Source: a virus (Duplodnaviria > Caudoviricetes). Taken from it: 64,000 nt of DNA. Positions 1,935 to 63,337 of this stretch are shown here, piece after piece (the stretch's first letter is position 1; every line of letters begins with the position of its first letter). The stretch lies in IMG/VR virus record IMGVR_UViG_3300033069_001465, one strand, 5' to 3'. The notes under the pieces were generated by a model that was not told the DNA's origin, searched no databases, and saw nothing but the letters and a program-made list of their open reading frames with translations. Made by a program: the position numbers and the translations under genes.

Positions 1935-2849
1935 ATGCCAAAAAGATTAAATAGAGATCAATTTATAGAAAAGTCTATAAAGGTGCATAATTTTAAATAT
2001 TCATATAATGATGTGATATATAAAAATAATCGGTCAAAAGTAGACATTAGTTGTCCTTTGCATGGAATATTCAAACAATTGCCACAAAATCACCTAAATG
2101 GATTTGGATGTCCTGAATGTTCTAATAATTTAAAATTAACTAATGAAATTTTCATTAAAAAATCTATAGAAATACACAGAAATAGATATAAATATGACTT
2201 GGTTAATATTTCAAATAATAGTTCAAAAGTTATTATTGAATGTGTAATTCATGGAAAATTTGAGCAATCACCATCATCACATCTTAGTGGTCATGGATGT
2301 TCAAAGTGTTATGGTAATAGTAGATCGAGTACGGAAGATTTTATTCTAAAATCAAAACTAATTCATGGTGATGTATTTAACTATGATAGTGTTAAATATA
2401 ATAACACTAATAAGAAGGTAGAGATAGAATGTAAACTACATGGAATATTTGATCAAACTCCTCATAGTCATCTAAGTGGAAAAGGTTGCCCAAATTGTAG
2501 AACATCAAAGGGTGAAGTAAAAATTCAAAAAATATTAGATGATAACAAAATTAAATATAAAAAACAATACTATTTTAGTGATCTTAAAGATATATCACTT
2601 TTATATTTTGATTTTGCCATTTTTGATCATACTAATAAGTTAATTTTCCTAGTGGAATATAATGGAATTCAACACTATCAATTTACTAAAATTTTTCATA
2701 GATCAGAAGATAATTTTGTAAAGTCAAATAATAGAGATGCTATGAAAATTAAATATTGTTTAGAAAATAAAATACCTTTGTATATCATAAAATATAATGA
2801 AAATATCTATAATAGGGTATGTAACCTAATTAAGACATATTTAATTTAG
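1935..2849 (+). CDS. Homing-endonuclease-like protein: DUF723-type Zn repeats plus Vsr/PD-(D/E)xK nuclease
   Basis: Three C-x2-HG-x-F-x-Q...H-x2-G-x-GC-x2-C repeats, then SKGE...FDF...EYNGIQHY. Confidence 0.75.
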   Translation: MPKRLNRDQFIEKSIKVHNFKYSYNDVIYKNNRSKVDISCPLHGIFKQLPQNHLNGFGCPECSNNLKLTNEIFIKKSIEIHRNRYKYDLVNISNNSSKVIIECVIHGKFEQSPSSHLSGHGCSKCYGNSRSSTEDFILKSKLIHGDVFNYDSVKYNNTNKKVEIECKLHGIFDQTPHSHLSGKGCPNCRTSKGEVKIQKILDDNKIKYKKQYYFSDLKDISLLYFDFAIFDHTNKLIFLVEYNGIQHYQFTKIFHRSEDNFVKSNNRDAMKIKYCLENKIPLYIIKYNENIYNRVCNLIKTYLI

Positions 2850-3542
2850 ATATATTACAAAACTATAATCATCAACATCAATATTCGTATTATATTGTCT
2901 TCCTTCCCTCTCTCGTTCGTAATAAATTGAACTAACATCATACAGTTGGTTTATCCTATTGTATATTCTATCCGCCAATGATTCTAAAAACTCTAAATTA
3001 TATTCCGGTTTTCCGCTACTGATAGGTCCATTAAAGGATATGTAAATCGCCGGTTTTTTAATTGATAGATACTCATCTATAGATATTCTCCCATAAGGTT
3101 TTGCGCATTCCCACATCATGTCACTTAGTATATTACCAATTTCCCACTTAAAATAATCTTTATTATCTAGTTTATTAGAACTTACTCCTATGTGAGATCC
3201 TTTTTTGGATATAGAAAACATAATTCGTGGGGTAAACCTTGGTATTTCATCAAAAAATTCAACCAATCTATCTTCAATATCTACCAATGAATTCTTTCTA
3301 AAAATACTAAATATTCTTTCTAACCACTTTTCTACGATATCATATAGATTATCATACTCCGATATCCTATCCAATTCTTTTTTATCTTCTTCAGTAATTT
3401 CTATTCCGTTTTTTAATTTATCTATAATGCTCGTTACAATATTTTCCTCCATGCTTGTTTTATGTAGAGCTCTCAAATCTCTATTATCATGTCTATTAGA
3501 GAATATTTTATTAAAGTTTTCATATGTTTTTATCCACTTCAT
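2841..3542 (-). CDS. Hypothetical protein with capsid-targeting-like leader (start revised to MKWIKTYENF)
   Basis: TAATATATA motif at 3548-3556 just upstream of ATG 3542; DIEDRLVEFFDE motif. Confidence 0.6.
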   Translation of the reverse strand: MKWIKTYENFNKIFSNRHDNRDLRALHKTSMEENIVTSIIDKLKNGIEITEEDKKELDRISEYDNLYDIVEKWLERIFSIFRKNSLVDIEDRLVEFFDEIPRFTPRIMFSISKKGSHIGVSSNKLDNKDYFKWEIGNILSDMMWECAKPYGRISIDEYLSIKKPAIYISFNGPISSGKPEYNLEFLESLADRIYNRINQLYDVSSIYYEREREGRQYNTNIDVDDYSFVIYLN

Positions 3543-4236
3543 TAGGATATATATTAATTCTGGATAAAGATATATCATAATACTCTTTATCCTTTTCAAC
3601 CAAAATGTAATTTCTATTTAATTCTTTACATGCCACCGCAAGTGTTCCAGATCCACCAAATGTATCCAAAATAATATCTTCCTCATTTGTATGCTTTTCT
3701 ATGATTTCTTTGATCAGACCTAAAGGCTTTTGTGTGGGATGTTTGGTTCTCTCTTTTCCATGACATAGTGGGTAATTATAGATGCCTTTATCGTATGATG
3801 AGTTGAATGTTGGATTGCCTTTTTTGACAAAAGTAAAAAAATACTCTATTGAGTTTGATAAATAATTTACCTTTGAATTAATCGGGGTCGGATTATTTTT
3901 GACCCATTGACCTATTCTTGGTTGTTTAAATCCATTATTCTCAGCTGCTTCTTTTATTTTATTTGATTTCCATATATCATAAAATATTATCAACGTTCCG
4001 CCTTTTTTGAGAATTCGTTTGTAGTGCTTGAACAGTAAATTTAAATTTATTTCTTCTTTATCCCATTCACCAAAATCTAAATTAATATTACTGAATTTAA
4101 TATTTTCAGCACCGCCTTCAAAAAATGATTTTTTTGAAATTATATATGGTGGATCGGTGAGTATTAAATCTATAGAATTATTTTCTATTGTAGGAAGTAC
4201 ATCAAAACAGTCACCATTAATAATCTGGTTTACCAT
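3520..4236 (-). CDS. DNA N6-adenine/N4-cytosine methyltransferase (beta class)
   Basis: GDC, DLILTDPPY, HPTQKP, LDTFGGSGT motifs in beta order. Confidence 0.9.
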   Translation of the reverse strand: MVNQIINGDCFDVLPTIENNSIDLILTDPPYIISKKSFFEGGAENIKFSNINLDFGEWDKEEINLNLLFKHYKRILKKGGTLIIFYDIWKSNKIKEAAENNGFKQPRIGQWVKNNPTPINSKVNYLSNSIEYFFTFVKKGNPTFNSSYDKGIYNYPLCHGKERTKHPTQKPLGLIKEIIEKHTNEEDIILDTFGGSGTLAVACKELNRNYILVEKDKEYYDISLSRINIYPNEVDKNI

Positions 4237-4255
4237 AATTTATATATAATGTGTC

Positions 4256-4633
4256 ATGAACTACCTTTTTAAGAAATATAGAAAATTTACCTTTAAAAGA
4301 GATAAATTTATTTCATCTATAATAGATAATGAAGTAAAAAGGACCAAAGAGTTTGGATTGAATATAGATCAAGAAGATGTTGAGTATGAAAAATTAATAT
4401 TTATTGCGGTTTTTGAATATATATGGGATAGAATAGAAAATTCGGGCTCAGATTTCTCATCATTAAGATTGGTAGCTAGTAGGACAATTAATGAAAAATT
4501 GGCACATTTAATTAAAAAGTATTTCGATATGTCGGTTAAAGAAAATTTAGATGTTAAAAATATGTATAATTGCCATATTGATGAGTGTATGTCTAAATTA
4601 TTTTTAAAAATAAGTAATAAATTATATGATTAA
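4256..4633 (+). CDS. Hypothetical protein
   Basis: 125 aa ORF overlapping the next start codon. Confidence 0.55.
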   Translation: MNYLFKKYRKFTFKRDKFISSIIDNEVKRTKEFGLNIDQEDVEYEKLIFIAVFEYIWDRIENSGSDFSSLRLVASRTINEKLAHLIKKYFDMSVKENLDVKNMYNCHIDECMSKLFLKISNKLYD

Positions 4634-5048
4634 AAAGTTTGAGCAATTTATATTAGAGAATACAGATTCTACAATTGAGATAATCGAAGATTGTTTTCTG
4701 GAATTTTGTGATGAATATGATTTGGATATTGATATAGATAAAGGATATTTACTTGGTAATGGTAGTTATATTCTTCCTAGAATGCTACCTGATGTATTAC
4801 AAATGGCTAAAGATGCAAAAAAAGAAATTAATGTAAAGGATTGTTATCGTGTTCAGTTATATTCTAAAAATAATAGGCGACCTGAATCAGATGAATCAAT
4901 GCCAAGTTTAAAAAACGTGTGGAAGAATTCGATTAATGATGACTTTTTAGCCTGTTTAAATCGATCTATGAGAATGACAAATTTAGAAGTGCAAGAGATA
5001 CCCAAATTAGAAAAGACAAATTGGTCAATAATACTATATATGATATGA
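4626..5048 (+). CDS. Hypothetical protein with capsid-targeting-like leader
   Basis: MIKKFEQFILE leader; IIEDCFLEFCDE motif. Confidence 0.6.
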   Translation: MIKKFEQFILENTDSTIEIIEDCFLEFCDEYDLDIDIDKGYLLGNGSYILPRMLPDVLQMAKDAKKEINVKDCYRVQLYSKNNRRPESDESMPSLKNVWKNSINDDFLACLNRSMRMTNLEVQEIPKLEKTNWSIILYMI

Positions 5049-5515
5049 AGTACTTATATAATTTTTTTGAATCATTTGCTGATAATTTTAATGCAGATGG
5101 CTGGTTGGAGTTTGATGGAACATCAGCATACACTCATCTAACATTTAACTCTTGGGATCATTTTAGGGATGGCAGGAAGCGTATTAATCCACAAGACATC
5201 ATACTTGAACAAGTTAAAGATATATTAGAAAAATATCTAAATAACAAAATAGTAAATTTAAAATGGAAACCAGAATTTAAACAATTATATTGCTATATGT
5301 ATAGTAGTGATAAAACACACATGAGTTATAAAGAGAGAGAGAAATCAAATAGGAAATTACTAATTATTGATTTTTATGATGATAATTGGATATTTTGTAG
5401 TATTATAAATAAAAACGATAGTATCATAAATGTAGAAACACATTTTGTTTGTGATGATATTTTTGGATTTGAAAATTTTATTAAAAATAAAAAAGAATAT
5501 CTAATGAATAGATAG
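5045..5515 (+). CDS. Hypothetical 'CDQ'-family protein (start revised to MKYLYNFFES)
   Basis: ATG at 5045 overlaps the upstream stop; DDNWIF...FVCDDIFGFENFI motif. Confidence 0.6.
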   Translation: MKYLYNFFESFADNFNADGWLEFDGTSAYTHLTFNSWDHFRDGRKRINPQDIILEQVKDILEKYLNNKIVNLKWKPEFKQLYCYMYSSDKTHMSYKEREKSNRKLLIIDFYDDNWIFCSIINKNDSIINVETHFVCDDIFGFENFIKNKKEYLMNR

Positions 5516-6334: not shown

Positions 6335-7192
6335 ATGAATATACTTAGATGGAAACAGTTTCTCGAATCAATAGGTGAAATACCAATTTTTAATATTGAT
6401 ATTTATAATAAAAGAATGGAAGTCGGATGGGAAGACAAACTATTTTTTTTAAATAAAATCAATCCTGATGTGATTGTTGACTTCGGATGTGCTGATGGAT
6501 CTATATTAGTTAAGGTAAAAAATAAAAAACCTGGTATTAAGCTTATCGGATATGAACCAGATGAAAAAATGTTATCTATTGCTAAATCACATTTAGACGA
6601 TGCTTTTTTAACATCTGATTGGAATGAAGTAGTTAAAGAAGTTGCTAAATATAGCAGGCCTGCTATTTTATTATCATCTGTTATACATGAAGTTTATTCA
6701 TACTCAAATCAATCTGATATTGATAAATTTTGGGATCATATATTTTCCGGAATATTTAAATGGATTTGTATTAGAGATATGATGCCTTCTATTCAAATAA
6801 ATAATAATATGGCGAATTTTAGTAATGATATTTCGAATGTTAGAAAAAATATTGATCCACATTTAATAAACTCATATGAAAATGTATGGGGAGAAATTAA
6901 AGATTATAAGTCTCTAATGCACTTACTATTGAAATATAAATATGTTGAAAATTGGAATAGAGAAGTAGAAGAAAACTATTTCCCTTTAATGTTGGAAGAA
7001 CTATATGCTCTTATACCAACTGGATATCAGATAACCTATCAAGAGAGTTTCCTACTTCCACATCTACCAAGTCAATTTAAAAATGATTTTGGAATTGATA
7101 TCAATAAGAAAACACATGCTAAGATGATTATCACAAATAAGAAATTTGATAAAAAAATAAATGAATCAGAAGATACAAAGAAAAAAGATTAG
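6335..7192 (+). CDS. Class I SAM-dependent methyltransferase (start revised to MNILRWKQFLES)
   Basis: VIVDFGCADG motif I, GYEPD motif II, LSSVIHEVYSY. Confidence 0.75.
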   Translation: MNILRWKQFLESIGEIPIFNIDIYNKRMEVGWEDKLFFLNKINPDVIVDFGCADGSILVKVKNKKPGIKLIGYEPDEKMLSIAKSHLDDAFLTSDWNEVVKEVAKYSRPAILLSSVIHEVYSYSNQSDIDKFWDHIFSGIFKWICIRDMMPSIQINNNMANFSNDISNVRKNIDPHLINSYENVWGEIKDYKSLMHLLLKYKYVENWNREVEENYFPLMLEELYALIPTGYQITYQESFLLPHLPSQFKNDFGIDINKKTHAKMIITNKKFDKKINESEDTKKKD

Positions 7193-13077: not shown

Positions 13078-15291
13078 TTATTTTGAGGTATCAATTCCTA
13101 AATCTAAATCAGAATATACTTTATATAATTTATCCTTACTATAATTTGATAATAAGTAGGACTTAAAATCAGAAATATCTATTTCTAGTTTTGAATCATT
13201 TATAAGTTTGTCTAAATTTCTATCAAATACACTACGAATCATATTTCTTAATTCATAAATGGTTAATGCTGATGCGACTTCTGCAACATTCCTTGAAATA
13301 GAATCATTTTTTGAATATAAAAAATTTCTCACTTCTCTATATGAAGAGTTCCAACTATCAGTAAGCATATAATATATATATGATAGTGGCATAAGCTTCA
13401 TCATGATTGTTATTTCACCATCATTCAGGCTATTAGATCCGATGTCTTCTAACATACGTTTAAATCTAATTGGATCAATATTTTTTACTACCTCATCAAT
13501 CGAGTTACCTACAATTTCTTTTAATATTTCATATTTCTCTTTACCTATTTTTTTACTTATTTTTTGATCATTTACATTTTGCCTATATGAGCCATCTGTT
13601 TGATATCTAAAATCATGTAACTCCTTCATAAATTCATCATATTTAATTGTTATTTCCTCAGATGCTTTTATTTCATCTTTTATTTTAAGATAATCAAAAT
13701 AAAAATTAATATCTAACCTTTCAATATAGTTAGTAGGATAAACATATCTATCTGTCTCTTCAACCGGAATATTAAAAAAATCTGATGTTTCTTTGGTTAT
13801 AAAATAATCATTTCTTGATGTGTATGGTATTTTAAGTTCGTCAACAATTTTTGAAAATTCATCTTGATCTTTAACTTTATATACCTTAAAGCAAATGAAA
13901 TTTGGATAGTTATATCCCCATATATCAGATATCTTAAGTTTCACATCATAATTTCTAGCAGAATAAACCGGGCTATTTGTAGCACGGAAATATTCATCTC
14001 CATTTTTAAGCATCTCTTCTGATTTTGTACAGGATTGGTAATTACGCATATCATGATAAATACCCAATGTTGTAGTTTTGGTACCAATGTATTCGGTTAT
14101 AACGTCAACTAAGTAGCTGGTAGGTATTACTCCATATTTTGGATGATCCACAGCAATTTTATTAGGAATCCAATCGTCCATTGCTTTAGAGTAAATAACT
14201 TCTTTCTCCAAATAATATGATCCGGTATAATTGCTATATTTTGCATCCTTTTTATAAATATATGAGTCTAATGATTCTATAAAAACAGCATCATCTCTCT
14301 TTATATAAACGTCTAGACTAACTGAATATCTATGTGTTTTTATGTCTTCCCTTCCAGCAGTATCTAATAATTCAGATATAACAAAATTAGGATATTCACT
14401 ACTTTTATTGACATTTGATACCATTCCATCTCCTGTTATTTTACCTCCTTCTAATCTTTTATATAAGCAGTTAAAAGTATCAGCGTAAGGATATTCATCA
14501 AACTTAACATTTTCTAATTTACACATCATTTCGCCACCTCCAATTTTCGAGTGTGACGCAAATATGTTTTCATCTCCTTTGGCAATGTTTTCGAAGACCC
14601 AATCATGCACATATCTATAATCGCTATCATTTTTATAATAGACCCTATCTAAGTATATTTTTTTACCATTTGTTGATTGATCTAATTTCCATAATAAGGC
14701 CCTTGCTATCAATTTATTATCCTCGGTTAGTATGACCATAGATATTTTATTTGGATTAGATGCATATATTTTCATGTATTTATTCTTTTCAGGAAATCTC
14801 ATACATGAGTTGCCTAGTGTTCCACCACTTCCATAATAGTGATCTTGATTATACCAATACAATATCTTATCACCATTAACTATTTCTATTTTTCTATTTG
14901 TAGAATTTCTCTTATCCCACTCTGCCTTAAATTGATTAACAAATTCCTCAATTTGAGCATCTGTTACATTGGATCCATTATCCATTAATAACTGACGAAC
15001 CATTCGACCAATCTTAGATTTGCTTTTGGTTTTAGTCCATGGATTTTCACCCTTTTCTTTAAATCTTTGATATTGACTATCTGGTAGAAATGAAATTTCA
15101 TCATTTTTATCAGATAGTCCTATTAAGTTATAGTTTGTTTTAACATCATGCTTTCCAACAATTACACCATATAGCTTATTACCAATTGCAGTGTTAGTCA
15201 TACCACCTAGAATAGATAGAAAATCAGCAGAACTAACCATCACTGATTCTAATAATTTGTCAATTAAAAAATTACTATATTTACTAATCAT
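13078..15291 (-). CDS. Uncharacterised 'SCM'-motif protein, paralog 1
   Basis: GTLGNSCMR, ARALLW, YLDRVY, YPYADT; leader MISKYSNFL...LLES. Confidence 0.7.
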   Translation of the reverse strand: MISKYSNFLIDKLLESVMVSSADFLSILGGMTNTAIGNKLYGVIVGKHDVKTNYNLIGLSDKNDEISFLPDSQYQRFKEKGENPWTKTKSKSKIGRMVRQLLMDNGSNVTDAQIEEFVNQFKAEWDKRNSTNRKIEIVNGDKILYWYNQDHYYGSGGTLGNSCMRFPEKNKYMKIYASNPNKISMVILTEDNKLIARALLWKLDQSTNGKKIYLDRVYYKNDSDYRYVHDWVFENIAKGDENIFASHSKIGGGEMMCKLENVKFDEYPYADTFNCLYKRLEGGKITGDGMVSNVNKSSEYPNFVISELLDTAGREDIKTHRYSVSLDVYIKRDDAVFIESLDSYIYKKDAKYSNYTGSYYLEKEVIYSKAMDDWIPNKIAVDHPKYGVIPTSYLVDVITEYIGTKTTTLGIYHDMRNYQSCTKSEEMLKNGDEYFRATNSPVYSARNYDVKLKISDIWGYNYPNFICFKVYKVKDQDEFSKIVDELKIPYTSRNDYFITKETSDFFNIPVEETDRYVYPTNYIERLDINFYFDYLKIKDEIKASEEITIKYDEFMKELHDFRYQTDGSYRQNVNDQKISKKIGKEKYEILKEIVGNSIDEVVKNIDPIRFKRMLEDIGSNSLNDGEITIMMKLMPLSYIYYMLTDSWNSSYREVRNFLYSKNDSISRNVAEVASALTIYELRNMIRSVFDRNLDKLINDSKLEIDISDFKSYLLSNYSKDKLYKVYSDLDLGIDTSK

Positions 15292-16160: not shown

Positions 16161-16463
16161 ATGAAATATTTAAAAACGTTTGAGACATTCGGAATTAATA
16201 AAGCATACGCAGTTGAAGAACTTTTAGATGAGGAAGTTTTTAATGAAAAATGTCCTGACTGTAATTGCAATTGTGATGAATGTGATTGTGATGAATGTGA
16301 TTGCAAAAATTGTCAAGGGGAGAGTGTTACTGAAAAAAAGAAAGCACCAAAGAAAGAAAAGGAAGATAAAGAAGATAAGCATGTAAAGAAAAAGGGATTA
16401 ACCGCTAAACAAAAGAAATTACCAGAAGCTTTTCAAAAAGCAATTTTAGCTAAACAAAAGTAA
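16161..16463 (+). CDS. Small Cys-rich/Lys-rich protein with capsid-targeting-like leader
   Basis: MKYLKTFETF; CPDCNCNCDECDCDECDCKNC; basic tail. Confidence 0.7.
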   Translation: MKYLKTFETFGINKAYAVEELLDEEVFNEKCPDCNCNCDECDCDECDCKNCQGESVTEKKKAPKKEKEDKEDKHVKKKGLTAKQKKLPEAFQKAILAKQK

Positions 16464-19371: not shown

Positions 19372-20781
19372 ATGAAGATAAGAAAATTTTCTCAATTTAA
19401 TGAATCCTCATCTAATTTTTATACTGAACTAACATATGATCAATATTTTGAGAACTTTAATAATTTGGTGAAATTCTATAAAAGTGACTACGAATTTATA
19501 GTTAATCTAATATCCAAAGACTATAAAATAGAATATAGAATAAATAATGCTCATGTTTTTAAAGATGATGAATGTGGATATACTAATCAAGCTCCACAAA
19601 TTATGATGATTGGGAAGGATAAAACTTATGTAATATCTAAAAAAAGGGATGAGTATTTTATAGTTGAAATATGTAATACTGATGACATTAAGTACTCAAA
19701 TAGAAAAGGAACATACTACTATTGTGACCAATTAGATGGATTATCTAAACTTTTAACAATTAAAGGTGTTACCAATAAAGTAAATGAGTCAGTAATAGAT
19801 ACTAAAAATAAATGGTTTGATGATATAAAAGATTTATTTCAAACATATGTTGATGAATATAAATTAAATAAAGTTGGAATATTAACACCAATAAATGATA
19901 TGAAAGAATATGATTATAAATTTATTCCAAAAAAATTCGAGGTGGAAATTATAATAAATGGTAGTATACCAAATATTAAGAATTATGTTAATAGAATAAA
20001 TAAATTTGGATATAAATCAATCATTGAAGAAAATATATCTCCAAGTAAACCATATAATCAAAAATTTAAATTTATTAAAATTTTTGTTATAAATCCATCC
20101 GCAACTAGGGCAAACGTCCGCCATTATTTATTAGAATCAAAAAAGGACGATACTTTATACATATTCGATCTAGATGATACATTAGTTTTAAATCCAAGAT
20201 TTGAAGAGTTGGCAATTGAGTATCTTAAAGAGGATGTTACTATTCGTTCATTACTACAATCATCTAATAGGAAAATTGGAGTAACGATGGATAAATTAAA
20301 ATGGGAAAATGGTAAAATATATGTTGAAGATCCTAATCAAGAAATAGAAATTAAAGGAAACTGGGTTAGAAAGGGAAAAAGAGTTTATCTAATTCCGCCG
20401 GATCGGTTCTACTTTACAAATATGAGTCTACCAATCAATACAACAAATCTATCAGAATTTTATAATAGTGTTGAGAATAAAGCTATAGTTACTGGTAGAG
20501 CAAATGATATCAAACACAAAATAATTGATTCTTTAAATAAATTTGATTTAGAAATGCCAAATTATGGATTACATTGTTATCCAGCAAAAGCACAAACTAG
20601 TGATAAAGTGGCATTATGGAAAGCTAAAACAATAATTGAGCTTATAAAAAATTCAGGATTTAAAAAAGTTGAATTTTATGATGATAACTCAAAATGGGTA
20701 AATAAAGTAACTGCGATGGTTAAAAAAGAGCTACCGGATATAAATTGGAGTGGCATAAAATATAAACATAAAAATGGATAA
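19372..20781 (+). CDS. Multidomain protein: CDQ domain, unknown domain, HAD phosphatase
   Basis: YYCDQLDGL; IFDLDDTLV, VTGR, WKAK, FYDD HAD motifs. Confidence 0.7.
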   Translation: MKIRKFSQFNESSSNFYTELTYDQYFENFNNLVKFYKSDYEFIVNLISKDYKIEYRINNAHVFKDDECGYTNQAPQIMMIGKDKTYVISKKRDEYFIVEICNTDDIKYSNRKGTYYYCDQLDGLSKLLTIKGVTNKVNESVIDTKNKWFDDIKDLFQTYVDEYKLNKVGILTPINDMKEYDYKFIPKKFEVEIIINGSIPNIKNYVNRINKFGYKSIIEENISPSKPYNQKFKFIKIFVINPSATRANVRHYLLESKKDDTLYIFDLDDTLVLNPRFEELAIEYLKEDVTIRSLLQSSNRKIGVTMDKLKWENGKIYVEDPNQEIEIKGNWVRKGKRVYLIPPDRFYFTNMSLPINTTNLSEFYNSVENKAIVTGRANDIKHKIIDSLNKFDLEMPNYGLHCYPAKAQTSDKVALWKAKTIIELIKNSGFKKVEFYDDNSKWVNKVTAMVKKELPDINWSGIKYKHKNG

Positions 20782-25085: not shown

Positions 25086-25808
25086 TTATTTTTTTAAAAT
25101 ATTAATTTCATATCTTCTATCTTCTATCTTTCTTAATTGAATTGAATTGTCAAAAACACGAAAAATGCTTCTGACAATTCTATCTACATCTGGTTTATTA
25201 TACATAACCTCAAATGTCACAGATTTATCCTGAACACCTTTTATAATATTAAATATTTTATTGTTAGTTAATACATCCATAACCCTAGCATACGGCATTT
25301 TTCTTTCTATTAAAGCTTTTCTTCTTGGACTTATTTGCCCATAATTTTTAGGTATATCAACATTTATTTTTAATTTAAATTCAAGTCTAATTCCATTATT
25401 AGTTATATCACATTGTTCAGCAACCACTTCTGTGTTGTGTATAGATGATATCCTATCAAAGGCGACTTGGTATTTGTTTACAACATCAGTAAAAAATTCT
25501 AATTTCTTTTTTGTACTATTAAGTGTATTTGTAGATGTTATATCCTTATTTACACGGACTCTATAACAAGGATAACATTGATTTTGAATTATATCCGCTT
25601 TTTGATCAGCTACTCTAAAACTATTTTTCTCACCATATCCAATTAGTAAATCTGTATTAAATGTAAATCCAATATCTCTTAGATCCAAAAAGTAATCCTC
25701 GATCTCATCAGGTGTTATATAGTCTTTTATTAGCTCTATTGCACCTTCTTTTAGCTCGGCTTGCCAATTCTCATTTATATTATAAAATTGATCAAATTTA
25801 GTTATCAT
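25086..25808 (-). CDS. Hypothetical protein with capsid-targeting-like leader
   Basis: MITKFDQFYNINE; EIEDYFLDLRD motif. Confidence 0.6.
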   Translation of the reverse strand: MITKFDQFYNINENWQAELKEGAIELIKDYITPDEIEDYFLDLRDIGFTFNTDLLIGYGEKNSFRVADQKADIIQNQCYPCYRVRVNKDITSTNTLNSTKKKLEFFTDVVNKYQVAFDRISSIHNTEVVAEQCDITNNGIRLEFKLKINVDIPKNYGQISPRRKALIERKMPYARVMDVLTNNKIFNIIKGVQDKSVTFEVMYNKPDVDRIVRSIFRVFDNSIQLRKIEDRRYEINILKK

Positions 25809-39237: not shown

Positions 39238-39662
39238 TATCTTGTATAAATATTTTTAAAAGAAAAATCCTGAGTATCATATAATATGATATTTTCATGA
39301 CCGAAAACTACAATAGTATCTTTAAAAAAGCTACATCCATGAATCTCATACATACTTAGAACGGATAACAAATCTTTATTTTTGAATACTAACACAAGAG
39401 ATAAATTATAATTGGCATATAATCTTATGTTATTATTTGTCGTTTTAAACCACAATGATCCATGCCTAATATCTTTTTTTGGTGATGATAAATCTATCGG
39501 ATCATCCAGCTGTGTCGTATTCAAGCGAAGACATTCTATTTTACTAGATATATCATTAATTTTTTTATTTCCATGTATAAAATCAATAGATGGATCATGA
39601 GTAATCTTGTTCCATGTTAGTACATCTTCCCCAGATTCATTTATTCTTTTTATATGTTTCAT
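39237..39662 (-). CDS. Hypothetical protein with capsid-targeting-like leader
   Basis: MKHIKRINES. Confidence 0.55.
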   Translation of the reverse strand: MKHIKRINESGEDVLTWNKITHDPSIDFIHGNKKINDISSKIECLRLNTTQLDDPIDLSSPKKDIRHGSLWFKTTNNNIRLYANYNLSLVLVFKNKDLLSVLSMYEIHGCSFFKDTIVVFGHENIILYDTQDFSFKNIYTR

Positions 39663-41557: not shown

Positions 41558-42428
41558 ACATGTCTTTTATAAATTTTATTACACCGTCAAGTTGGTCACA
41601 TTTATACATTTTTTCCTCCCAATTAACAACACTTCCATCATCCATTCCAACACATGCCAAAAACCAATCATCACTACATTTCATTATATCTATAGTTTCT
41701 TTTTCATTATTTGGTTTTATCCTCATAGTAAAATTTTTAACTACTATAACATCATCTTCTGATGTTTCTGATAATTTATGGCTTTTTATACTATCACCAT
41801 CATGTATCCTTATTTCTTCACTCTCAAACCACTTATCTAATCCCCAATTATCTGAGATAAGCCATTCTTTACCACCGGTAATAAGAGAAGCATCTTCAGT
41901 TTCAACCATAAAATCCTTTCCAACAAAATTCTTTAGTGTTAATATTTCACTGTTTGAAAGAAAGTATATATCGGGATTTTGTATAGTATTATCAAATTCG
42001 TCTTGTGTTACTTTATAATAATAGTTATTCTTAACATCTAATGATTCATCAACTTTGTTGGGTAATAGTGTTTTAAGACATTTTATAACACCATTTATTT
42101 GATCGCACTCATAAAAGAATGGATAGTCTGTTACTTGAAACCACTCATCTTTATATTTTTCTACTTTTATATATTTTTTCATAGATGTATCTTTATATGG
42201 AATCCATGTTCCTACACCAATAGGATGCTCATATGATCCTTGTTCTAACTCAAATTTATCAACTCTATATTTTCTTAAAAGTGATTTTATTTGATCAAAT
42301 TCTACATCAGTAAAGATATCTAAGTTAGAAGCAAAAAACTTTTCAACACCTTCACTGGCAGGCCCCCTGGATCCATAAGAAATCTCCCTAAATCCATTAA
42401 ATTTTTCAAATATTTTTAAATATTTCAT
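41544..42428 (-). CDS. Tandem CDQ-domain protein with capsid-targeting-like leader
   Basis: MKYLKIFEKFN; FYECDQINGV and MYKCDQLDGV, separated by VDES. Confidence 0.65.
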   Translation of the reverse strand: MKYLKIFEKFNGFREISYGSRGPASEGVEKFFASNLDIFTDVEFDQIKSLLRKYRVDKFELEQGSYEHPIGVGTWIPYKDTSMKKYIKVEKYKDEWFQVTDYPFFYECDQINGVIKCLKTLLPNKVDESLDVKNNYYYKVTQDEFDNTIQNPDIYFLSNSEILTLKNFVGKDFMVETEDASLITGGKEWLISDNWGLDKWFESEEIRIHDGDSIKSHKLSETSEDDVIVVKNFTMRIKPNNEKETIDIMKCSDDWFLACVGMDDGSVVNWEEKMYKCDQLDGVIKFIKDMYEIY

Positions 42429-42760
42429 TTATTTATAACTTTATTTAGGTATTGCAATCCATAGAATATATCAACAACTCTTAATTTAATAACACCTTGT
42501 ACGGCAGGTGATGTAAAGCTATGCCCCTGCTTTCTAAGTAAAGCTGTTATCCAAATATAATCACCTCTTTTAACCTCTTTGACTGATAAATCCGTATTTA
42601 TGCCAATAGCACCTTCAGTAACAGGTATATCTTTCGGGTCGGTAAATATATCTAAGATTTCTTCGATTTGATACTCACCTTTAAGTTTTTGTATTTCTGG
42701 CTCTAAGTCTTTATTCTCAATATCTGAGGATAATTCGTCGTACTTTTTGATTTTATTCAT
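42425..42760 (-). CDS. Hypothetical protein
   Basis: MNKIKKYDEL; late motif at 42765-42773. Confidence 0.6.
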   Translation of the reverse strand: MNKIKKYDELSSDIENKDLEPEIQKLKGEYQIEEILDIFTDPKDIPVTEGAIGINTDLSVKEVKRGDYIWITALLRKQGHSFTSPAVQGVIKLRVVDIFYGLQYLNKVINK

Positions 42761-55836: not shown

Positions 55837-57522
55837 TTAGTTAAGGAATCCACCAGCGTCTGTAACGTTAAGTTGCATATACTGTTTTTGTGGGAACCAA
55901 CCAACTTCAGCTACTGCATATCTTGAACGTAATAACATTCTAGGAGCGAATGTAGCTTCAGAAATGATGCTGATAGATTGTGCCATTAAGTATGGAACAA
56001 AGATAACACCAGGTTGATCAGGGTTGTTCTTTCTACCAAGAACGATTCTGTTGTCGTTATACTTCATGTAAGGATCAACATAAACAGTGATATCACCGAT
56101 TTGACCTACAGGGTATAATTGACCTGAACCATTGATCTTAGATTTAGCAGGGTTAATTGTGTAACCAGCTACATCCATGAAAGCTGCTGCAAGACCTCCG
56201 TTAGTAACTGCAAATTGTGCAGGACCAACACGACCTTCAGTTGCGATGAAGTTAGAAGCGTGTACTAACTTAGTGATAAGTTTTCTTTGTACAGCGTGTG
56301 TAGTTTCACCACCTGGGCCAGAAGTACCAACATAAGATGTGTCTAAGTCAAATAAAGGACTACCACCTCTCGTAGGAGCAGATGTTCTGTTTAATGCACC
56401 TAATTCGAAGATTTTAGCAATGATTTGCTTAGAAATTGTTTGAGATAACTCATTAACAAGGATAGACTCCATCTTTTGAACGATGTCCATACCAGTGTTA
56501 GCTTTGATATCTTCAATTTCACTTCTTCTAAGAGCTGAAGATACTTCAATAGTACCAACTGCGATAGATTTAGAAGAAACTTTAGGTCCGATAACACCAG
56601 CGTAGCTGTTATCATCATCTTGACGAGACATTGGATAAGTACCACCGTTAGTCCAGTTAGATACGAAGCCAGGAATGTGATCTTCAAGAGCAGACACTAA
56701 TTCAACTGTACATGCAGAAACTGCAGTACCACCAAGTAAAGTGATTTGAGCCACCATAGAGGCAGTTGGGTTGAAAGTGTTTTTAGTTTGGTCAAATGCC
56801 CAAGGAGCAGGACCAGTTACACTGCTAGGAGTTACAGCACCGAAAGCGTTAGCTTGTCTGTAAGCCTTAAACATTGGGTAACCATCAATACGAGAGAATC
56901 CTAAGAATTCTGTCCAATATTGTTTAGAAACACCACTAGTTGCTGGGTCAGTTGTTGATGTTGAACCAGTGTTGATGTTCTGGAATAATCTACCACCAGC
57001 TAAACCACCCTGAGTTTGAGTGATTGAAGCACTTACTAAAGCAGCAGTTAAACCTGCAACAACAGCGGCAGCTTCACTAGTGCTAGTAACGTTAACTTTG
57101 AAAACCTGAGGTCTTTCATTGTTATCAAGATTACTATCATCATACTGGAAGTCGATGTAAAGTAAGTCGATTTTTGGACCAGGAGTAGGTTTTACAGCAA
57201 CAAGGTCAAGACCAATTGTTTGAGCTGCAATTTTCATAGCTACTGGTAAAAGGTTTTGGCCTAAATCACCAGAACCGACTTGACCACCATGGCTAGACCA
57301 GTTAGTACCGATAGTACTACCTGCCCAAGTTGAAGGCTGAGGAGCGGTTATTGAACCCATACCTGCGATACCTGCGTTAAGGTATGCATTTTCATTGATA
57401 GAGTGGTACTCAGCATATTCTGATAACCAGTCTAATTTTTCTTCGCTAACAACACCCATGTTCTCCAATACAGGAGCCCATTTCTTGAAAGCTTTTTGTT
57501 TGTCTATTCTAATGTGTGACAT
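55837..57522 (-). CDS. Major capsid protein (T4 gp23-like)
   Basis: KWAPVLE, DLVAVKP, VYVDPY, FVPY, PRMLLRSRYA; biased codon usage; follows the protease. Confidence 0.92.
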   Translation of the reverse strand: MSHIRIDKQKAFKKWAPVLENMGVVSEEKLDWLSEYAEYHSINENAYLNAGIAGMGSITAPQPSTWAGSTIGTNWSSHGGQVGSGDLGQNLLPVAMKIAAQTIGLDLVAVKPTPGPKIDLLYIDFQYDDSNLDNNERPQVFKVNVTSTSEAAAVVAGLTAALVSASITQTQGGLAGGRLFQNINTGSTSTTDPATSGVSKQYWTEFLGFSRIDGYPMFKAYRQANAFGAVTPSSVTGPAPWAFDQTKNTFNPTASMVAQITLLGGTAVSACTVELVSALEDHIPGFVSNWTNGGTYPMSRQDDDNSYAGVIGPKVSSKSIAVGTIEVSSALRRSEIEDIKANTGMDIVQKMESILVNELSQTISKQIIAKIFELGALNRTSAPTRGGSPLFDLDTSYVGTSGPGGETTHAVQRKLITKLVHASNFIATEGRVGPAQFAVTNGGLAAAFMDVAGYTINPAKSKINGSGQLYPVGQIGDITVYVDPYMKYNDNRIVLGRKNNPDQPGVIFVPYLMAQSISIISEATFAPRMLLRSRYAVAEVGWFPQKQYMQLNVTDAGGFLN

Positions 57523-57585: not shown

Positions 57586-59772
57586 TTAAATGCTTCTGAA
57601 TCTTTCCATAATTGCGTTAACTTCACTGTCTGAAAGTCTATCTTCTTGTATTAGGCTTTCGTGAGCGACTAACTTCTTAGTTACAGATTCATTTTTCTTG
57701 AGATTTCTAGTTAACCAGAAATGTTCTACTTTTGATTCAGTATTTAATTCTGGGTATAATCTAGCTTGAGATAAGATAGATTTTCTAGATGCTTCATTTA
57801 GCTGACTCCAGATTGGCTTAATGTTTTCAGGCATCAATCTGACTAATTTTTCTTCAATTGATTCATTCTTAACTGAAAGTGCTTCAGAGATTAATTTTAA
57901 AACATCAGAACTTGAGTAATAACTCTTTTCGTTTATGTAAAGTTTAACTTGTTCTTGCTCATCGTTAGAAAGTTCATAATAACTATCAACTTGAGACTTG
58001 TTTAAGAATTTTAAGAAATTTAAATCGTTTGACTCAGAAACTTTACGTTTTTTAGCTTCTTCGATTAGTTTGTCTATTTGTAAAGATAGGTCGCTATCTG
58101 ATTCTCCATTATATTCAGTATTTTCACCAAATACTCTTTCTTCTTCACCAACTTCTTCATTACCACATTCATCACAATCTTCCTGATTATCTAATTGACC
58201 AGGTAAAACTTCTTCACCAGGTAATTCAGAACCTAAGTCCTGATTAGGTAATCCTTCTTCTTCAACAAATTCTTCTTCACCAGGTAATCCTACTTCGGAA
58301 GTATATTCATCAACCAAAGGAAATTCTTCATCATATTCGTCTTCTTCTTCAGGAAGCAATTCAAATCCTGCTTCGTTAAGTGTTGGGAATGATTCACCAC
58401 TATTTTCGAATACTTTACCACCGTTTAATTTCTCAGAAATCATGCCTGCATAAGTTACAGTTTTGTCTAAGTTTTCAGCGATATATTCAGAATAAGCAAT
58501 GTTATCATCTAAATGTTCTGCAATGTATTCGGAATATGCGATATTTCCTTCTACATGCTCTGCTAAATATTCAGAATAAGCAATTGAGTTATCTAAGTGT
58601 TCAGCTAAATATTCAGAATAAGAAATATTCTTATCAAGATTTTCAGCGATATACTCAGAGTATGCAATGTTCTTATCCAAGTTTTCAGCGATATATTCAG
58701 AATAAGCAATATTCTTATCAAGATTCTCAGCTAAATATTCAGAATAAGTAATGTTTTTGTCGATATTTTCAGCTAAATATTCAGAATAAGTAATGTTTTT
58801 GTCGATATTTTCAGCTAAGTATTCAGAGTAAGTAATGTTCTTATCTAAGCTTTCAGCTAAGTATTCAGAATAATTAATAGCTTTTTCTAAATTTTCAGCT
58901 AAGTAGTCATTGTGACTTACTAATTTTTCAGTAGTTGATTTTAATGATTTGTTTTCATTAACTACAACTTGAACTTTTTCTGCTAAGTAATCTAAATACT
59001 TAACAACTTGCTCGTTAGTTTTGTTTAACTCTTCGTAGTACTCTAAAAGTTGCTCTAATTTTTTCGGATTTAAGTTACCAGTTTTTAAGGCAGATTTAAC
59101 TTCCTTTTTAGTAGATGCAATCTCATTGATTATATACTTAGAATAATCTGTCAATTGATCTTTGGTAACGAATTCATTTTTGTTCATGTTGAATAGTTCG
59201 TTAATTTTTGACTCGTCGGACATTTCATATATCCTAAAGTTAGCGTTGTCTGTGTAACCAAATGACTCATTTACTGATGTCAATCTAGCAGAAGCAAAAC
59301 CTGGGTCAGCTACAATGTCGTAAGTGAATAACTTCTTCAATGTAACTGTTCCATTAGCTTCTGTAATACCAGCAGCTCTTGATGAAACGAACATTGGACA
59401 ACCATCATCTACTAATGCTTTTGCTTCTTTACCCCAATAAGTATTTAATAATCTAATTTGACCATCAACCCTATTGCTCTCCTTAACATAAAATGCTTTT
59501 TGAATAAGGTGAGAAGATCTTGATAATGAAGTATCAAATACATCAGGATGATCGAATTCACCATAAACTACACCCATAGTATTTATTCTTTCGTTTAATT
59601 CATCTAAACATGGAATAAATTTGTCTGCAGTGTAAATTCTTTCATTTCTGTTTTTAACACCAAACTCAGTAAATATACCACCTAACACATAGTCTTTCTT
59701 ACTAGCGCCTTCAGCGTTTTCATTCATACTAAGTGGGGTTGTATTGTTTTCAACAATTAATACTGGTTTCAT
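57586..59772 (-). CDS. Prohead protease (gp21-like) fused to scaffold-like region
   Basis: NRNERIY, GEFDHP, VSSRAAG, TYDIVADPG; long coiled-coil/acidic C-terminus. Confidence 0.88.
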   Translation of the reverse strand: MKPVLIVENNTTPLSMNENAEGASKKDYVLGGIFTEFGVKNRNERIYTADKFIPCLDELNERINTMGVVYGEFDHPDVFDTSLSRSSHLIQKAFYVKESNRVDGQIRLLNTYWGKEAKALVDDGCPMFVSSRAAGITEANGTVTLKKLFTYDIVADPGFASARLTSVNESFGYTDNANFRIYEMSDESKINELFNMNKNEFVTKDQLTDYSKYIINEIASTKKEVKSALKTGNLNPKKLEQLLEYYEELNKTNEQVVKYLDYLAEKVQVVVNENKSLKSTTEKLVSHNDYLAENLEKAINYSEYLAESLDKNITYSEYLAENIDKNITYSEYLAENIDKNITYSEYLAENLDKNIAYSEYIAENLDKNIAYSEYIAENLDKNISYSEYLAEHLDNSIAYSEYLAEHVEGNIAYSEYIAEHLDDNIAYSEYIAENLDKTVTYAGMISEKLNGGKVFENSGESFPTLNEAGFELLPEEEDEYDEEFPLVDEYTSEVGLPGEEEFVEEEGLPNQDLGSELPGEEVLPGQLDNQEDCDECGNEEVGEEERVFGENTEYNGESDSDLSLQIDKLIEEAKKRKVSESNDLNFLKFLNKSQVDSYYELSNDEQEQVKLYINEKSYYSSSDVLKLISEALSVKNESIEEKLVRLMPENIKPIWSQLNEASRKSILSQARLYPELNTESKVEHFWLTRNLKKNESVTKKLVAHESLIQEDRLSDSEVNAIMERFRSI
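58450..58911 (-). repeat. 11 x 42-nt coding tandem repeat (SEYLAENLDKNIAY)
   Basis: In frame, varying mostly at synonymous positions. Confidence 0.9.
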
Positions 59773-60402: not shown

Positions 60403-62148
60403 TTAGAATTCAAACTCACCGCCACCTTGTGCTGGAGGAGGAGTTTCACCGCCACCTTGTGCTGGAGGAGTTTCACCACCGCCTTCTCCACCAAATTCAC
60501 CACCGCCCTCTCCACCAAATTCACCACCGCCTTCTCCACCAAATTCACCGCCTTGAGGTCCACCAAATTCACCACCGCCCTCTCCACCAAATTCACCACC
60601 TTCTCCACCACCTTGTGCGCTTCCAGCCCCTTTAGATTTAATCCAGTATGCTTTATTCTCTTCTTTTTCTTCTGGGGTTAATTTCATGATTTTATCAATT
60701 AGGTATTCAATATGAAAATAAGGTTGACCTTCAGCAGTTTGAATTCCTAGTAGACTTGATAATATAGATGATCTTTTTTCCATATTAGCCAATTTTTTCC
60801 ATTCTTCAAATATTTGATTTGAATTAAATGAAATATCAATTTGATTTAGGAATATTTCATCATCTTTTAATTCAGGAAATTCCATACACATTTGAAGTCT
60901 AAGAGATTTTACAATAAGCTCTTTAAAGTTAGATCTAATTCTATTAATAAAATTAGAAAATTTAACTTCATCTCTAGTCATCTCGGACGCATCTGAAAAA
61001 ACATTACCTCCTCCGTTTTCCTTTTCAAACCTTGAAAAAGGTATTTTAGATGCTCTTTTCAATGCATTGTAAAACCAAGTTAACATATCACTCTCATTTA
61101 AATTATGTCCCTCTGGTGATACTAGCTCCATGTTTGGAGTACCAGCTTCACCTTCAGGAAACCATATTTGCTTATTATAAGGAAGATGTTTTGTACCATT
61201 TATAGTTAATGTTCCTAAGGAATCATCCCATTCTACCTCTTCAGAATAATCTGATATTAGCTGACCAACTTGCTCCTCAGCTCTTTGTCTAGGTAACCCT
61301 TTGATAGGAATAGTGAACTTCTGATAGACAGTAGCATTAATAACGTTGAACATAATTCTAGTTTGCTCAATTATTTTTAACTGATTATAGGGTTTAATTA
61401 ATCCTTCTACATAAGAAGTTTCGGAATAATCATGCTGGGTTGAATAAGATATAAATACTATTTGAGAATCTAAAAATATTCTTCTTAATTGTGGATCTTC
61501 GGGATATTGAATCCAAAGATTACCAATAGATGGTTCATATGCCGGAACTAATGTTTCTGGTCTCATTCTATTGAAGTGAATAATATTCTTTTTCTTATCA
61601 TCCCATACAATTTCTAATGCAACATATCCATCAATTAGAAAATCCTTCATCATATTCCATGATGTTATACCATCGGAGAATCCAAACTTGTTATATATTT
61701 TTTCAAAATATTCTGTATACTTATCTTTAACATCTTGTGAATAATCATTAGATAATGGTTTTAGGAAACAAAAATCTCTATCATCATTATAAATAATAGA
61801 TTCATCAGCCACAGATGAAATGAAATCTCTTATTTCATCTTTGATAGAATATTCTCTTAAAATTCTTCTTTTATCAGAATACGCTCGATCTAAATATGGT
61901 ATAGACTTTCTATTTAATATTTGAGCAACGGCTTTTTGACTAAAGAAATCATACATTGAGTTCCCTTTTTGAGAATAGGGGTCCTCATTCATACCAACAC
62001 CTACAGTATTCCTGATGATCATATCATCATATTTCATTCCAAATGAACTAAGATTTCTTAACAGTCGATTAAACAATCCTTTATTTTCTACTGAAGAAGC
62101 AATATTTGTAGGTTGTTGCTGTTGGTTCAATGAATTGTATGAAGCCAT
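60403..62148 (-). CDS. Portal protein (T4 gp20-like)
   Basis: FLIDG, IKPYNQL, RASKIPFSRF, RDEVKF; upstream of protease and capsid. Confidence 0.9.
   Translation of the reverse strand: MASYNSLNQQQQPTNIASSVENKGLFNRLLRNLSSFGMKYDDMIIRNTVGVGMNEDPYSQKGNSMYDFFSQKAVAQILNRKSIPYLDRAYSDKRRILREYSIKDEIRDFISSVADESIIYNDDRDFCFLKPLSNDYSQDVKDKYTEYFEKIYNKFGFSDGITSWNMMKDFLIDGYVALEIVWDDKKKNIIHFNRMRPETLVPAYEPSIGNLWIQYPEDPQLRRIFLDSQIVFISYSTQHDYSETSYVEGLIKPYNQLKIIEQTRIMFNVINATVYQKFTIPIKGLPRQRAEEQVGQLISDYSEEVEWDDSLGTLTINGTKHLPYNKQIWFPEGEAGTPNMELVSPEGHNLNESDMLTWFYNALKRASKIPFSRFEKENGGGNVFSDASEMTRDEVKFSNFINRIRSNFKELIVKSLRLQMCMEFPELKDDEIFLNQIDISFNSNQIFEEWKKLANMEKRSSILSSLLGIQTAEGQPYFHIEYLIDKIMKLTPEEKEENKAYWIKSKGAGSAQGGGEGGEFGGEGGGEFGGPQGGEFGGEGGGEFGGEGGGEFGGEGGGETPPAQGGGETPPPAQGGGEFEF
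60415..60615 (-). repeat. Gly/Glu low-complexity repeats (GGEFGGEG; GGGETPPAQ) in the portal tail
   Basis: About 24-nt imperfect tandem units. Confidence 0.85.
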
Positions 62149-62219
62149 TTAAAATTTAAATATTTTTTCATATATATTAAAAAATAGTATATTGTTTATA
62201 TTCTAATATATTAATAAGT

Positions 62220-62912
62220 TTATTGCCCATATTTGTCAAGACTCTTTTGTATCCTTAGTATATGATTTTTTAATACTTTATAGTTATCCAATATATCATC
62301 AGACGCAGTAAAAAAATCATCAATTAATGATTTAGACATTTCTTTATGTCTTTCTCCTTGTTCTCCTATTTTAGCTTCCCATATTTCATATAACTTTTTA
62401 GGATCATATTTATTTATAGGATGTTGTGAGTATAGAAATCTAGGGACCATACTCATAGATATTTTATGTACGGCTTTGACTTGAGCCATATTATATTCAA
62501 CAATAGCATATTCAAATCCATATTTTAGTAATTCGCGATACATACCCTCATATGTTACTTTAAGCAATCTGTCATTTTCAAAATCTTCTTCTATTATAAA
62601 TTTATCAAAAATGGCAGCTCTTACTTCTAATGGTATGAAATTAAAATTAACCCCATGTATAATAATTAGGTTTTCAAATTTTTTAAAATCAATAGTAAAT
62701 ATTGGAGAATATTTCATCCAATTAGAATCATCCATATAATGTAGAAAATAAAACCCACCCAATTGAATTTTACCAATTGGTATATTCATTATATTATCAT
62801 CTGATTTAGAATAGGCATTATAAAAGAACAAAGAATTGTTTTTAAAATTCTCTACTATTCCATCACCGTGGACTAAATTGCTTAATTTTATTCTTTCTAA
62901 CAACTCTGCCAT
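62220..62912 (-). CDS. DNA end-protector-like protein (T4 gp2-like)
   Basis: G-x-FYFLHY...YSPIF...GVNFNFIP-x3-R pattern; near the gp4-like gene. Confidence 0.55.
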   Translation of the reverse strand: MAELLERIKLSNLVHGDGIVENFKNNSLFFYNAYSKSDDNIMNIPIGKIQLGGFYFLHYMDDSNWMKYSPIFTIDFKKFENLIIIHGVNFNFIPLEVRAAIFDKFIIEEDFENDRLLKVTYEGMYRELLKYGFEYAIVEYNMAQVKAVHKISMSMVPRFLYSQHPINKYDPKKLYEIWEAKIGEQGERHKEMSKSLIDDFFTASDDILDNYKVLKNHILRIQKSLDKYGQ

Positions 62913-63337
62913 TAAGTAAATATATTTCTTTTAAATATGTATTCTACTAATTTTAAACCACTTTTATATTCTTTGGACTCATATTTATCAAATTTAATAT
63001 GTGGGTATATATGAGTAATTCTATTTATAAAACTCAACATTATTTTCATAACGGCATTAGTATTAAAATTACTTGAATCTTTAGTAAATGATTCGTCTTC
63101 CGACTTAGCCTGTATTATTATGGAAAATGAATAAGGATCGATGGTAACCGGGATAAAAGATACAATTCGCGCTCTTGTTACTGGATGGTTGTTCATTGAA
63201 CAAACAATCACATCATAGTCATCACTTAACTCTGTTAAATAATCTTCAATATCCTCTATATTAACTTTAAATGTCTTTTGGAACTTTTCCCTTTCGATAA
63301 TAGAAATTGACTCATTAAATTTTTTGAGATACTTCAT
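62912..63337 (-). CDS. Hypothetical protein with capsid-targeting-like leader
   Basis: MKYLKKFNES; DIEDYLTELSD. Confidence 0.6.
   Translation of the reverse strand: MKYLKKFNESISIIEREKFQKTFKVNIEDIEDYLTELSDDYDVIVCSMNNHPVTRARIVSFIPVTIDPYSFSIIIQAKSEDESFTKDSSNFNTNAVMKIMLSFINRITHIYPHIKFDKYESKEYKSGLKLVEYIFKRNIFT

Follow-up and report, generated by a model that had tools for sequence, protein, structure and literature searches.

What does it mean when genes with little else in common begin with the same short peptide? This question was raised by a 64-kb stretch of phage DNA (28% G+C, 73 called genes; hereafter the window) from the record IMGVR_UViG_3300033069_001465, in which an initial annotation had described a leader shared by about 22 unrelated proteins. 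All of the 19 N-termini quoted there were found in place, and two further ones fitted the pattern, MIFKFLEFKDES of the gene starting at 28142 (-) and MNKIKKYDELS of the gene starting at 42760 (-). The results showed that 21 of the 73 genes carried the tag (18 clear and three borderline) in one of two forms, M-K-[YH]-[LI]-K-x-[FY]-[EN]-E-[FS] (form 1) or M-I-[KS]-K-[FY]-x-x-F-[IL]-x-E (form 2). The tag spanned residue 1 to residues 9-14, a short and extreme N-terminal position that is also that of the capsid targeting sequence (CTS, 10-19 residues) of phage T4. We consider it probable that the tag is a T4-type capsid-targeting propeptide that has been massively expanded. Judged from its proteins, the window appears to come from a huge, uncultured T4-related phage of Bacteroidota. 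For its major capsid protein (MCP), the identity was 69-70% with two uncultured phages of 635 and 642 kb, 36-53% with phages of 462-735 kb, about 32% with the Lak megaphages and 28% with the Tenacibaculum phage PTm1. A Bacteroidota host was also indicated by a TAnnTTTG element of the Bacteroidota type, which was found before three genes.

The tag was well separated from the background. The mean top-five BLOSUM neighbour score was at least 18 for 21 of 71 N-termini, and the null from random internal windows of the same proteins had a mean of 0.4 and a maximum of 5 (500 draws). With a ten-column position-specific scoring matrix (PSSM), the 21 tagged genes scored at least 13.5 and all others at most 6.9, and the best of 19,120 internal positions scored 12.2. 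Leave-one-out scoring revealed three weak members, the genes at 5045, 6335 and 39237-39662. Beyond the first 20 residues, only the genes at 13078, 23034 and 28191 were related, as paralogues, so that the tag was present on at least 19 unrelated families. A leader scan of a whole genome, which had been proposed as a check, was performed on LR745206.1, a complete 634,780-bp relative joined from 13 pieces, from which all whole-genome counts were taken. At a score of at least 10, the window model was passed by 67 of the 892 open reading frames (ORFs) of LR745206 (7.5%), against none of 156 shadow ORFs and three of 2212 internal Met sites. A model retrained on LR745206 selected 121 ORFs (13.6%) at a threshold passed by two of the 2212 null sites, and it recovered 20 of the 73 window genes. 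Chance, an artefact of composition, or the descent of one diverged paralogous family would be favoured by the three true paralogues among the 21 carriers, but the other 18 showed no similarity past residue 20 and the null distributions excluded chance, which leaves this explanation a negligible probability.

Comparison with T4 revealed that the tag resembled the CTS closely, as had been suggested. In the T4 record, the internal proteins IPII and IPIII begin with MKTYQEFIAE and IPI begins with MKTFKEFTST. The search space consisted of the ATG starts in six frames of 140 kb of T4 (NC_000866), and the columns of the tag core were trimmed post hoc. Trained on the window alone, the core ranked IPI, IPII and IPIII 2nd, 4th and 5th of 1144 T4 starts (chance, 4e-8), and an eight-column core placed them 7th, 3rd and 2nd. 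The full ten-column model did not retrieve the internal proteins from T4, because the tag of the window is 2-3 residues longer at the N-terminus. Amber-suppressor genetics of the IPIII tag assigned targeting to residues 4 (Tyr) and 7 (Phe) and processing to residues 8 and 10, and these ten residues suffice to bring GFP, beta-galactosidase and further proteins into the head, at 20-200 copies (PMC9026906, a review of Black's work). In the window, the best-kept column and one of the next best were an aromatic residue and a Phe three residues further on, preceded by K-[KT], which equals K-T-Y-x-E-F of T4. The aromatic anchor was Phe or Tyr in 20 of 21 window tags and in 65 of 67 LR745206 tags. The position three residues on was Phe, Ile or Leu in 15 of 21 and 45 of 67 tags, respectively, with Ser in the shorter ...F-(N)-E-S form. 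Form 2 ran on as F-[IL]-x-E, identical to the T4 pattern, and the tag of LR756500, a more distant huge phage (capsid 36% identical), was MKYI(K/L)EYEEF(I/L)LE, which lay between the two and closer to T4.

The likeness comprised an N-terminal peptide of about 10 residues on otherwise unrelated, accessory proteins, a core of K-T-[FY]-x-E-F with both targeting aromatics, and an apparent closure, in many of the tags, by hydrophobic-x-Glu ahead of a small residue, in genomes with a gp21-family protease, a scaffold core and a gp23-type shell. The systems differed in that T4 has three carriers and the CTS-like gp61.1, whereas about 20 were found here in 64 kb and about 70-120 in the complete relative. 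The tag was also longer at its N-terminus (MKYL...) with two interchangeable forms, and the protease-scaffold fusion and the predicted large enzymes among the carriers had no counterpart in T4. In T4 itself, gp61.1 (54 residues, 18966-19130, -) was observed to begin with MKTFKEFIKED and to reach the core score of the internal proteins; from its sequence, it is possibly a fourth CTS-bearing T4 protein.

The head machinery with which a T4-type tag works was encoded in the window. The gene at 57586..59772 (-) encoded a 728-residue protein in which a prohead protease of the T4 gp21 family (residues 2-140; Pfam Peptidase_S77) was fused to a scaffold-like coiled coil that made up the remainder. BLASTP aligned residues 2-140 with T4 gp21, with the GEFDHP (His) and VSSRA (Ser) motifs kept, and placed L-I-V-E at residue 8 opposite the T4 L-I-E-9 site. 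The scaffold part contained 10.6 copies of a 42-nt (14-residue) unit, NI(A/T)YSEY(L/I)AEN(L/I)DK (DNA 58466-58909), and (L/I)-A-E, the cut motif of T4, was present in each copy. The MCP of the gp23 family (Pfam Gp23) was encoded at 55837..57522 (-). The sequences SINE in the capsid protein and SMNE and SVNE in the protease, which had been put forward as similar cut sites, were present as quoted, at residues 41-44 of the MCP and residues 15-18 and 166-169 of the protease, and are putative cut sites. The MCP propeptide likely ends at HSINE/NAY (the slash marks the junction, at residue 44), where cleavage is predicted from the sequence, and INE-NAY was kept in 71 of 72 relatives. BLASTP of the MCP against T4 gp23 aligned only the C-terminal fold and a weak N-terminal block, so that I-N-E could not be placed against the known T4 site. 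The T4-type portal (gp20 family) was encoded at 60403..62148 (-; Pfam Portal_T4, 5.5e-60), and the 3' end of its gene contained GGEFGGEGG-type repeats (60416-60600) with periods of 24-30 nt.

The boundary of the tag was examined in orthologues of the tagged NFACT-R RNA-binding protein. In 80 IMG/VR loci around the capsid gene, 50 NFACT-R homologues were found, most of them directly after the capsid gene, and the conserved block KKDKFPNIKK could be located in 48. The tag before this block was 9, 10, 11, 12, 13 or 14 residues long and alternated between both forms. The tag form of orthologues also differed between the window (MKYLKTFESKK) and LR745206 (MIKKYKLFKEGKK). In 47 of the 48 orthologues it ended with E-S or E-G right before the conserved body. 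AlphaFold on the NFACT-R alignment gave a mean pLDDT (predicted local distance difference test) of 90, with values below 50 for residues 1-11 only. These in silico results supported the leader as a portable, detachable N-terminal module. An upstream module was joined in frame to the NFACT-R gene in 10 of the 48 loci (L026, L033, L034, L037, L038, L040, L042, L065, L074 and L090, at about 10.1-13.0 kb), with the tag retained at the seam, as in ...NNVIKYDQFITEG/KKDKFP; these fusions may be polyproteins that are cut in the head. Overall, [LIVFM]-x-E within residues 5-16 occurred in 73% of tagged and 24% of untagged proteins and NE[SN] in 24% and 1%, differences that are partly built into the motif. 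A junction of hydrophobic-x-Glu and a small residue at the end of the tag would resemble the sites in the capsid and scaffold proteins.

The tag was also present in other huge phages and sparse or absent elsewhere. Its frequency was 5.5% in the 80 head-region loci and 3%, 3% and 8% in samples of the more distant huge phages LR756504, LR756501 and LR756500, respectively. In T4 it was limited to the internal proteins. It was found in 0-1% of Lak-B5 N-termini (25.6% G+C; 0-1 of about 100) and in none of 56 in the 50 kb around the head genes of the cultured relative PTm1 (29.5% G+C). Since these AT-rich phages of Bacteroidota lacked the tag, neither AT-rich DNA nor a Bacteroidota host accounts for it. 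Among the tagged proteins of LR745206 were a T4-type RNA ligase, a NUDIX enzyme, a 2H/Acb1-like phosphoesterase, a DEDD exonuclease and NFACT-R, and about 60 of the 67 tagged proteins had no match. The tagged enzymes have a counter-defence flavour that resembles, by analogy, what T4 Alt and IPI do in host takeover and against restriction. Nine small tagged genes (MKHLKKFNES, MKYLRKYNES and others) stood consecutively at about 450.9-458.3 kb of LR745206.

The distribution of the tag over the window was selective. Replication genes had been said to lack the leader, and it was indeed carried by none of about 16 annotated genes for replication, nucleotide metabolism, DNA methylation, capsid and portal (p = 0.004). 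The untagged genes comprised those for ribonucleotide reductase, a DnaB-type helicase, a second helicase, family B DNA polymerase, two DNA methylases, thymidylate synthase, Fpg glycosylase, SAM lyase, a glycosyltransferase, an M28 peptidase, homing endonucleases, the portal, the protease-scaffold and the capsid. The motif (G)TATCTTTGTAATATG stood before three genes, upstream of 32743 (-), 35794 (-) and 50728 (+), and fitted the TAnnTTTG -7 element; these units are probably early and read by the host polymerase, and none of their seven genes was tagged. A different motif, TTAATATATA, was found in 19 copies against 2.8 expected, all of them intergenic with a gene start 5-35 nt away, the portal unit included (for example at 1904-1919, 28158-28173, 62171-62180 and 63345-63354). 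It is likely a phage promoter element, and its closeness to start codons suggests very short mRNA leaders. A AATATATA-type motif lay ahead of the unit for 19 of 21 tagged and 30 of 52 untagged genes (p = 0.007), a relaxed pattern that is permissive in AT-rich DNA. The claim that most leaders lie in operons behind a late motif therefore stood with respect to the motif, and the word late is an inference. Homologues in LR745206 were found for 10 of 21 tagged and 34 of 52 untagged genes (p = 0.19), which did not support a faster evolution of the tagged genes.

The position of the tag at the start codon also allows a reading in which selection acts on mRNA or DNA; translation initiation in a Bacteroidota host poor in Shine-Dalgarno sequences, an element close to the promoter and a recombination cassette would be candidates. 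The 28% G+C of the genome, the AT-rich codons of the tag and the promoter-like motif just upstream would suit it. In addition, a conserved tag sequence was linked to polymorphism at the T-even IP locus, in the account of Repoila et al. 1994 that is given in PMC9026906. As that account describes it, the T-even locus shares with the window a constant tag before variable, exchangeable bodies, and differs in being one small locus with few genes, whereas the tag here was genome-wide and often in runs. The codons spoke differently. In 88 tags from two genomes, the choice among synonymous codons was the same as in the gene bodies (Lys AAA, 70% in tags and 74% in bodies; Glu GAA, 75% and 73%), and no difference was found for Ile, Asn and Leu codons, which indicated selection on the peptide rather than on RNA or DNA and largely refuted the nucleotide-level reading. 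Furthermore, the substitutions in the tag were conservative at the protein level (I/L, F/Y, E/N/D), the position of the tag shifted by 0-5 residues relative to the ATG, and the tag occurred internally at the fusion seams and was absent from the other AT-rich phages of Bacteroidota. Selection on the nucleotide sequence is thus very improbable.

The tag was found to be modular and similar to the T4 signal, and T4-type machinery was encoded alongside it. On this basis a route can be proposed by analogy with T4, in which docking, cleavage, packaging and injection would follow one another. Late in infection, the amphipathic N-terminal peptide, with a hydrophobic face that would consist of [YH], [LI], [FY] and [F/I/L], would dock its carrier onto the scaffold core under the forming shell. 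The scaffold-fused gp21-family protease would cut behind the closing Glu of the tag (hydrophobic-x-Glu, with Ser, Gly or Asn as the next residue), and the same type of cut would chop the scaffold at the repeated (L/I)-A-E and shorten the capsid protein at I-N-E. Once released, the cargo proteins would remain in the head with the DNA, and both would enter the next cell together. In this lineage the tag appears to have spread to dozens or hundreds of unrelated accessory genes of mostly unknown function, some of which encode predicted RNA-repair, nucleotide-modifying and likely anti-defence enzymes. The location of NFACT-R and acidic-protein homologues within the head gene cluster of relatives supported this route.

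The main rival is a different docking target: the tag could direct its carriers to, or dock them on, a phage-made assembly or partner other than the capsid interior, such as another part of the virion, a compartment for replication or assembly, a chaperone, or a protease that serves only to activate or destroy the carriers. It gains from the fact that the choice of the scaffold core as docking partner rests on analogy, and tags at the internal seams of fused orthologues would suit a role as cut site or linker. It is opposed by the close match to the T4 core with both genetically shown targeting residues, by the co-occurrence of the tag with T4-type head machinery and by the two tagged genes inside the head cluster of relatives. 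No tag contained the hydrophobic stretch of a Sec, Tat or lipoprotein signal (at least 10 residues behind a basic N-terminus), the tags being amphipathic with acidic or polar residues following, which also argued against secretion or membrane targeting. Overall, another docking target appears unlikely, and a T4-type capsid-targeting propeptide is the reading that we prefer.

Several points weigh against this preference. Docking, cleavage, head residence and injection would all be taken over from T4 by analogy, and the full model missed the T4 proteins, which were found only by the core after two columns had been trimmed post hoc. Docking through the N-terminus alone does not account for the tags at internal seams behind untagged N-termini. 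Judged from the sequences, the residue three before Glu was often Phe or Tyr, whereas it is Leu or Ile in T4, and several tags would allow more than one cut. A tagged share of 27-29% of the genes is without precedent, and in the closest complete relative it was only 7.5-13.6%. Some carriers are large (737 residues; 632 residues with an intein). The promoter-like motif is weak evidence, because its late status is inferred and it also precedes homing endonuclease genes and many other untagged genes.

The load itself would be feasible. T4 contains about 1000 copies of internal proteins, or about 14-17 MDa per 171 kb of DNA (copy numbers and masses from PMC9026906), and the same ratio gives about 60 MDa for 640 kb. 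The 21 tagged window proteins comprised 5898 residues, about 0.65 MDa at one copy each, so there would be room for a few hundred proteins of this kind at several copies each. The phiKZ-like giants 201phi2-1, phiKZ and SPN3US offer a further comparison: they also have many different head proteins that are cut after Glu by a gp21-related protease, with propeptides thought to target the prohead, but their propeptides are mostly 80-130 residues long, end with S/A-x-E and occur on about 8-19 processed proteins (PMC5694885). They lack a common short tag, whereas a T4-like peptide of 9-14 residues was shared here by far more genes. A phiKZ-type ejection-protein propeptide was ruled out for the window tag by this length and by the hydrophobic-x-E junction.

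We tentatively suggest, as a possibility that falls somewhat short of even, that huge T4-related phages of Bacteroidota load about a hundred or more different proteins into the capsid through one short, interchangeable peptide, RNA-repair, nucleotide-modifying and anti-defence enzymes among them, and that the virion delivers a "starter proteome" with its DNA. For most genes of huge phages no role is known, and the reason for the size of these genomes is unexplained. If the suggestion is correct, many of the unexplained genes in giant genomes, a large share of them, would encode proteins that travel in the virion instead of acting as intracellular factors, and a sequence rule would flag between one tenth and one third of the genes as probably encoding cargo of the head, giving an address to hundreds of orphan proteins. 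The tag would predict proteins that act in the first seconds of infection, as candidate anti-defence or takeover factors, and would supply naturally occurring tags with which foreign proteins could be loaded into large capsids, a use to which the T4 tag has already been put. The T4 targeting signal would also predate the T-even phages by far and extend well beyond them. No paper joining capsid targeting with huge, jumbo or mega phages was found in a literature search, which is not proof of absence.

The individual carriers were recognised with the PSSM, with scores and additional support given in brackets. The gene at 2841..3542 (-) encoded 233 residues beginning with MKWIKTYENF (19.8), without a Pfam or PHROG match, and its start was just downstream of a TTAATATATA motif at 3548-3557. 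It was followed by a 140-residue protein at 4626..5048 (+), MIKKFEQFILE/N, in the T4-like F-I-x-E form (24.4), and by the borderline 156-residue protein at 5045..5515 (+), MKYLYNFFES (13.5; leave-one-out 0.9), the LR745206 homologue of which has MRLIKKFENF at an internal start. A second borderline carrier, MNILRWKQFLES (285 residues; 6335..7192, +; 15.3, leave-one-out -0.9), was methyltransferase-like, with Pfam Methyltransf_12 at 24 bits, under the cut-off. The proteins at 13078..15291 (-; 737 residues, MISKYSNFLIDKLLES), 23034..24560 (-; 508 residues, MISKYDDFILE/Q) and 28191..30134 (+; 647 residues, MKLKTYSDFLLE/S) were the three paralogues. The orthologues of the first two in LR745206 begin with MLTKYESFLLER and MIKKYLDFIKES, respectively; the second contained a Cys-rich BSD2-type zinc finger (Pfam), and the GTG start of the third was backed by an upstream promoter-like motif and by the paralogue alignment from residue 1. 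Between them stood a 100-residue protein at 16161..16463 (+), MKYLKTFETF (19.8); a 469-residue protein at 19372..20781 (+), MKIRKFSQFNES, with a weak DUF2608 match; a 240-residue protein at 25086..25808 (-), MITKFDQFYNINE/N (17.4); and a 292-residue protein at 26500..27378 (-), MNYIKTYEEI (18.6). The C-terminal half of the 469-residue protein matched an untagged 213-residue protein of LR745206, so that this body also exists without the tag. The 254-residue nucleotidyltransferase at 27378..28142 (-), beginning with MIFKFLEFKDES (Pfam; phrog_36119), had 16 orthologues with N-termini of the type M-K/R-x-x-K-[FY]-[FY]-E-F.

A 138-residue protein at 36039..36455 (+), MKYLKLFENF (19.5), preceded the unit 36452-42760, in which seven of eight genes were tagged. 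In this unit, MKHIKKFNE (17.7) began a 106-residue protein at 36452..36772 (-) and MKLKKYFEINE/R a 146-residue acidic protein at 36787..37227 (-), homologues of which flanked the MCP gene in 41 relatives at a distance of 2-4 kb. The NFACT-R protein (128 residues, MKYLKTFE/SKK; Pfam 1e-12) was encoded at 38851..39237 (-), next to the weaker MKHIKRINE/S (141 residues; 39237..39662, -; 13.9, leave-one-out 4.3). The FMN reductase-like flavoprotein at 39659..41557 (-; 632 residues, MKYIKLFED; Pfam) was split by an intein with a LAGLIDADG homing endonuclease (Pfam Intein_splicing and LAGLIDADG_3, residues ~106-436), and its first 105 residues gave no useful match among PDB sequences. The remaining tagged genes of the unit encoded MKYLKIFEKF (294 residues; 41544..42428, -; 17.2) and, at its head, MNKIKKYDELS (111 residues; 42425..42760, -). 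The last carrier, MKYLKKFNE/S (141 residues; 62912..63337, -), headed the portal-containing unit. The tagged proteins that reached Pfam cut-offs were NFACT-R, the FMN reductase-like protein and the nucleotidyltransferase, so that these three of the enzymes listed in the initial annotation were retained. The methyltransferase and HAD-like matches were both under the cut-off, the tag of the methyltransferase-like protein was borderline, with an N-terminus that was the same in its orthologue, and the "SCM" family had no recognisable fold. The other tagged proteins had no match in Pfam or PHROGs, and of the 20 proteins compared with PHROGs (19 tagged ones and the untagged 62220-62912), 19 had no match.

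Some other features of the window were observed. The gene at 37229-38839 (-) stood between two tagged genes, in a block that adjoins the capsid gene in relatives and is 17 kb away from it here. It was a paralogue of the gene at 49355-50521 (+), with 50% identity over 224 residues, and the latter had a weak Pfam match to M28 peptidases. ARAGORN found no tRNA or tmRNA gene in the whole window. A GIY-YIG gene (54974-55735), a TnsA-like gene (63369-63878) and DUF7487 genes were also present. Three DUF723/treble-clef zinc-finger paralogues at 1935-2849, 18287-19360 and 47565-48512 (+) were 36-46% identical and contained internal repeats; they are probably homing endonuclease-like mobile genes.

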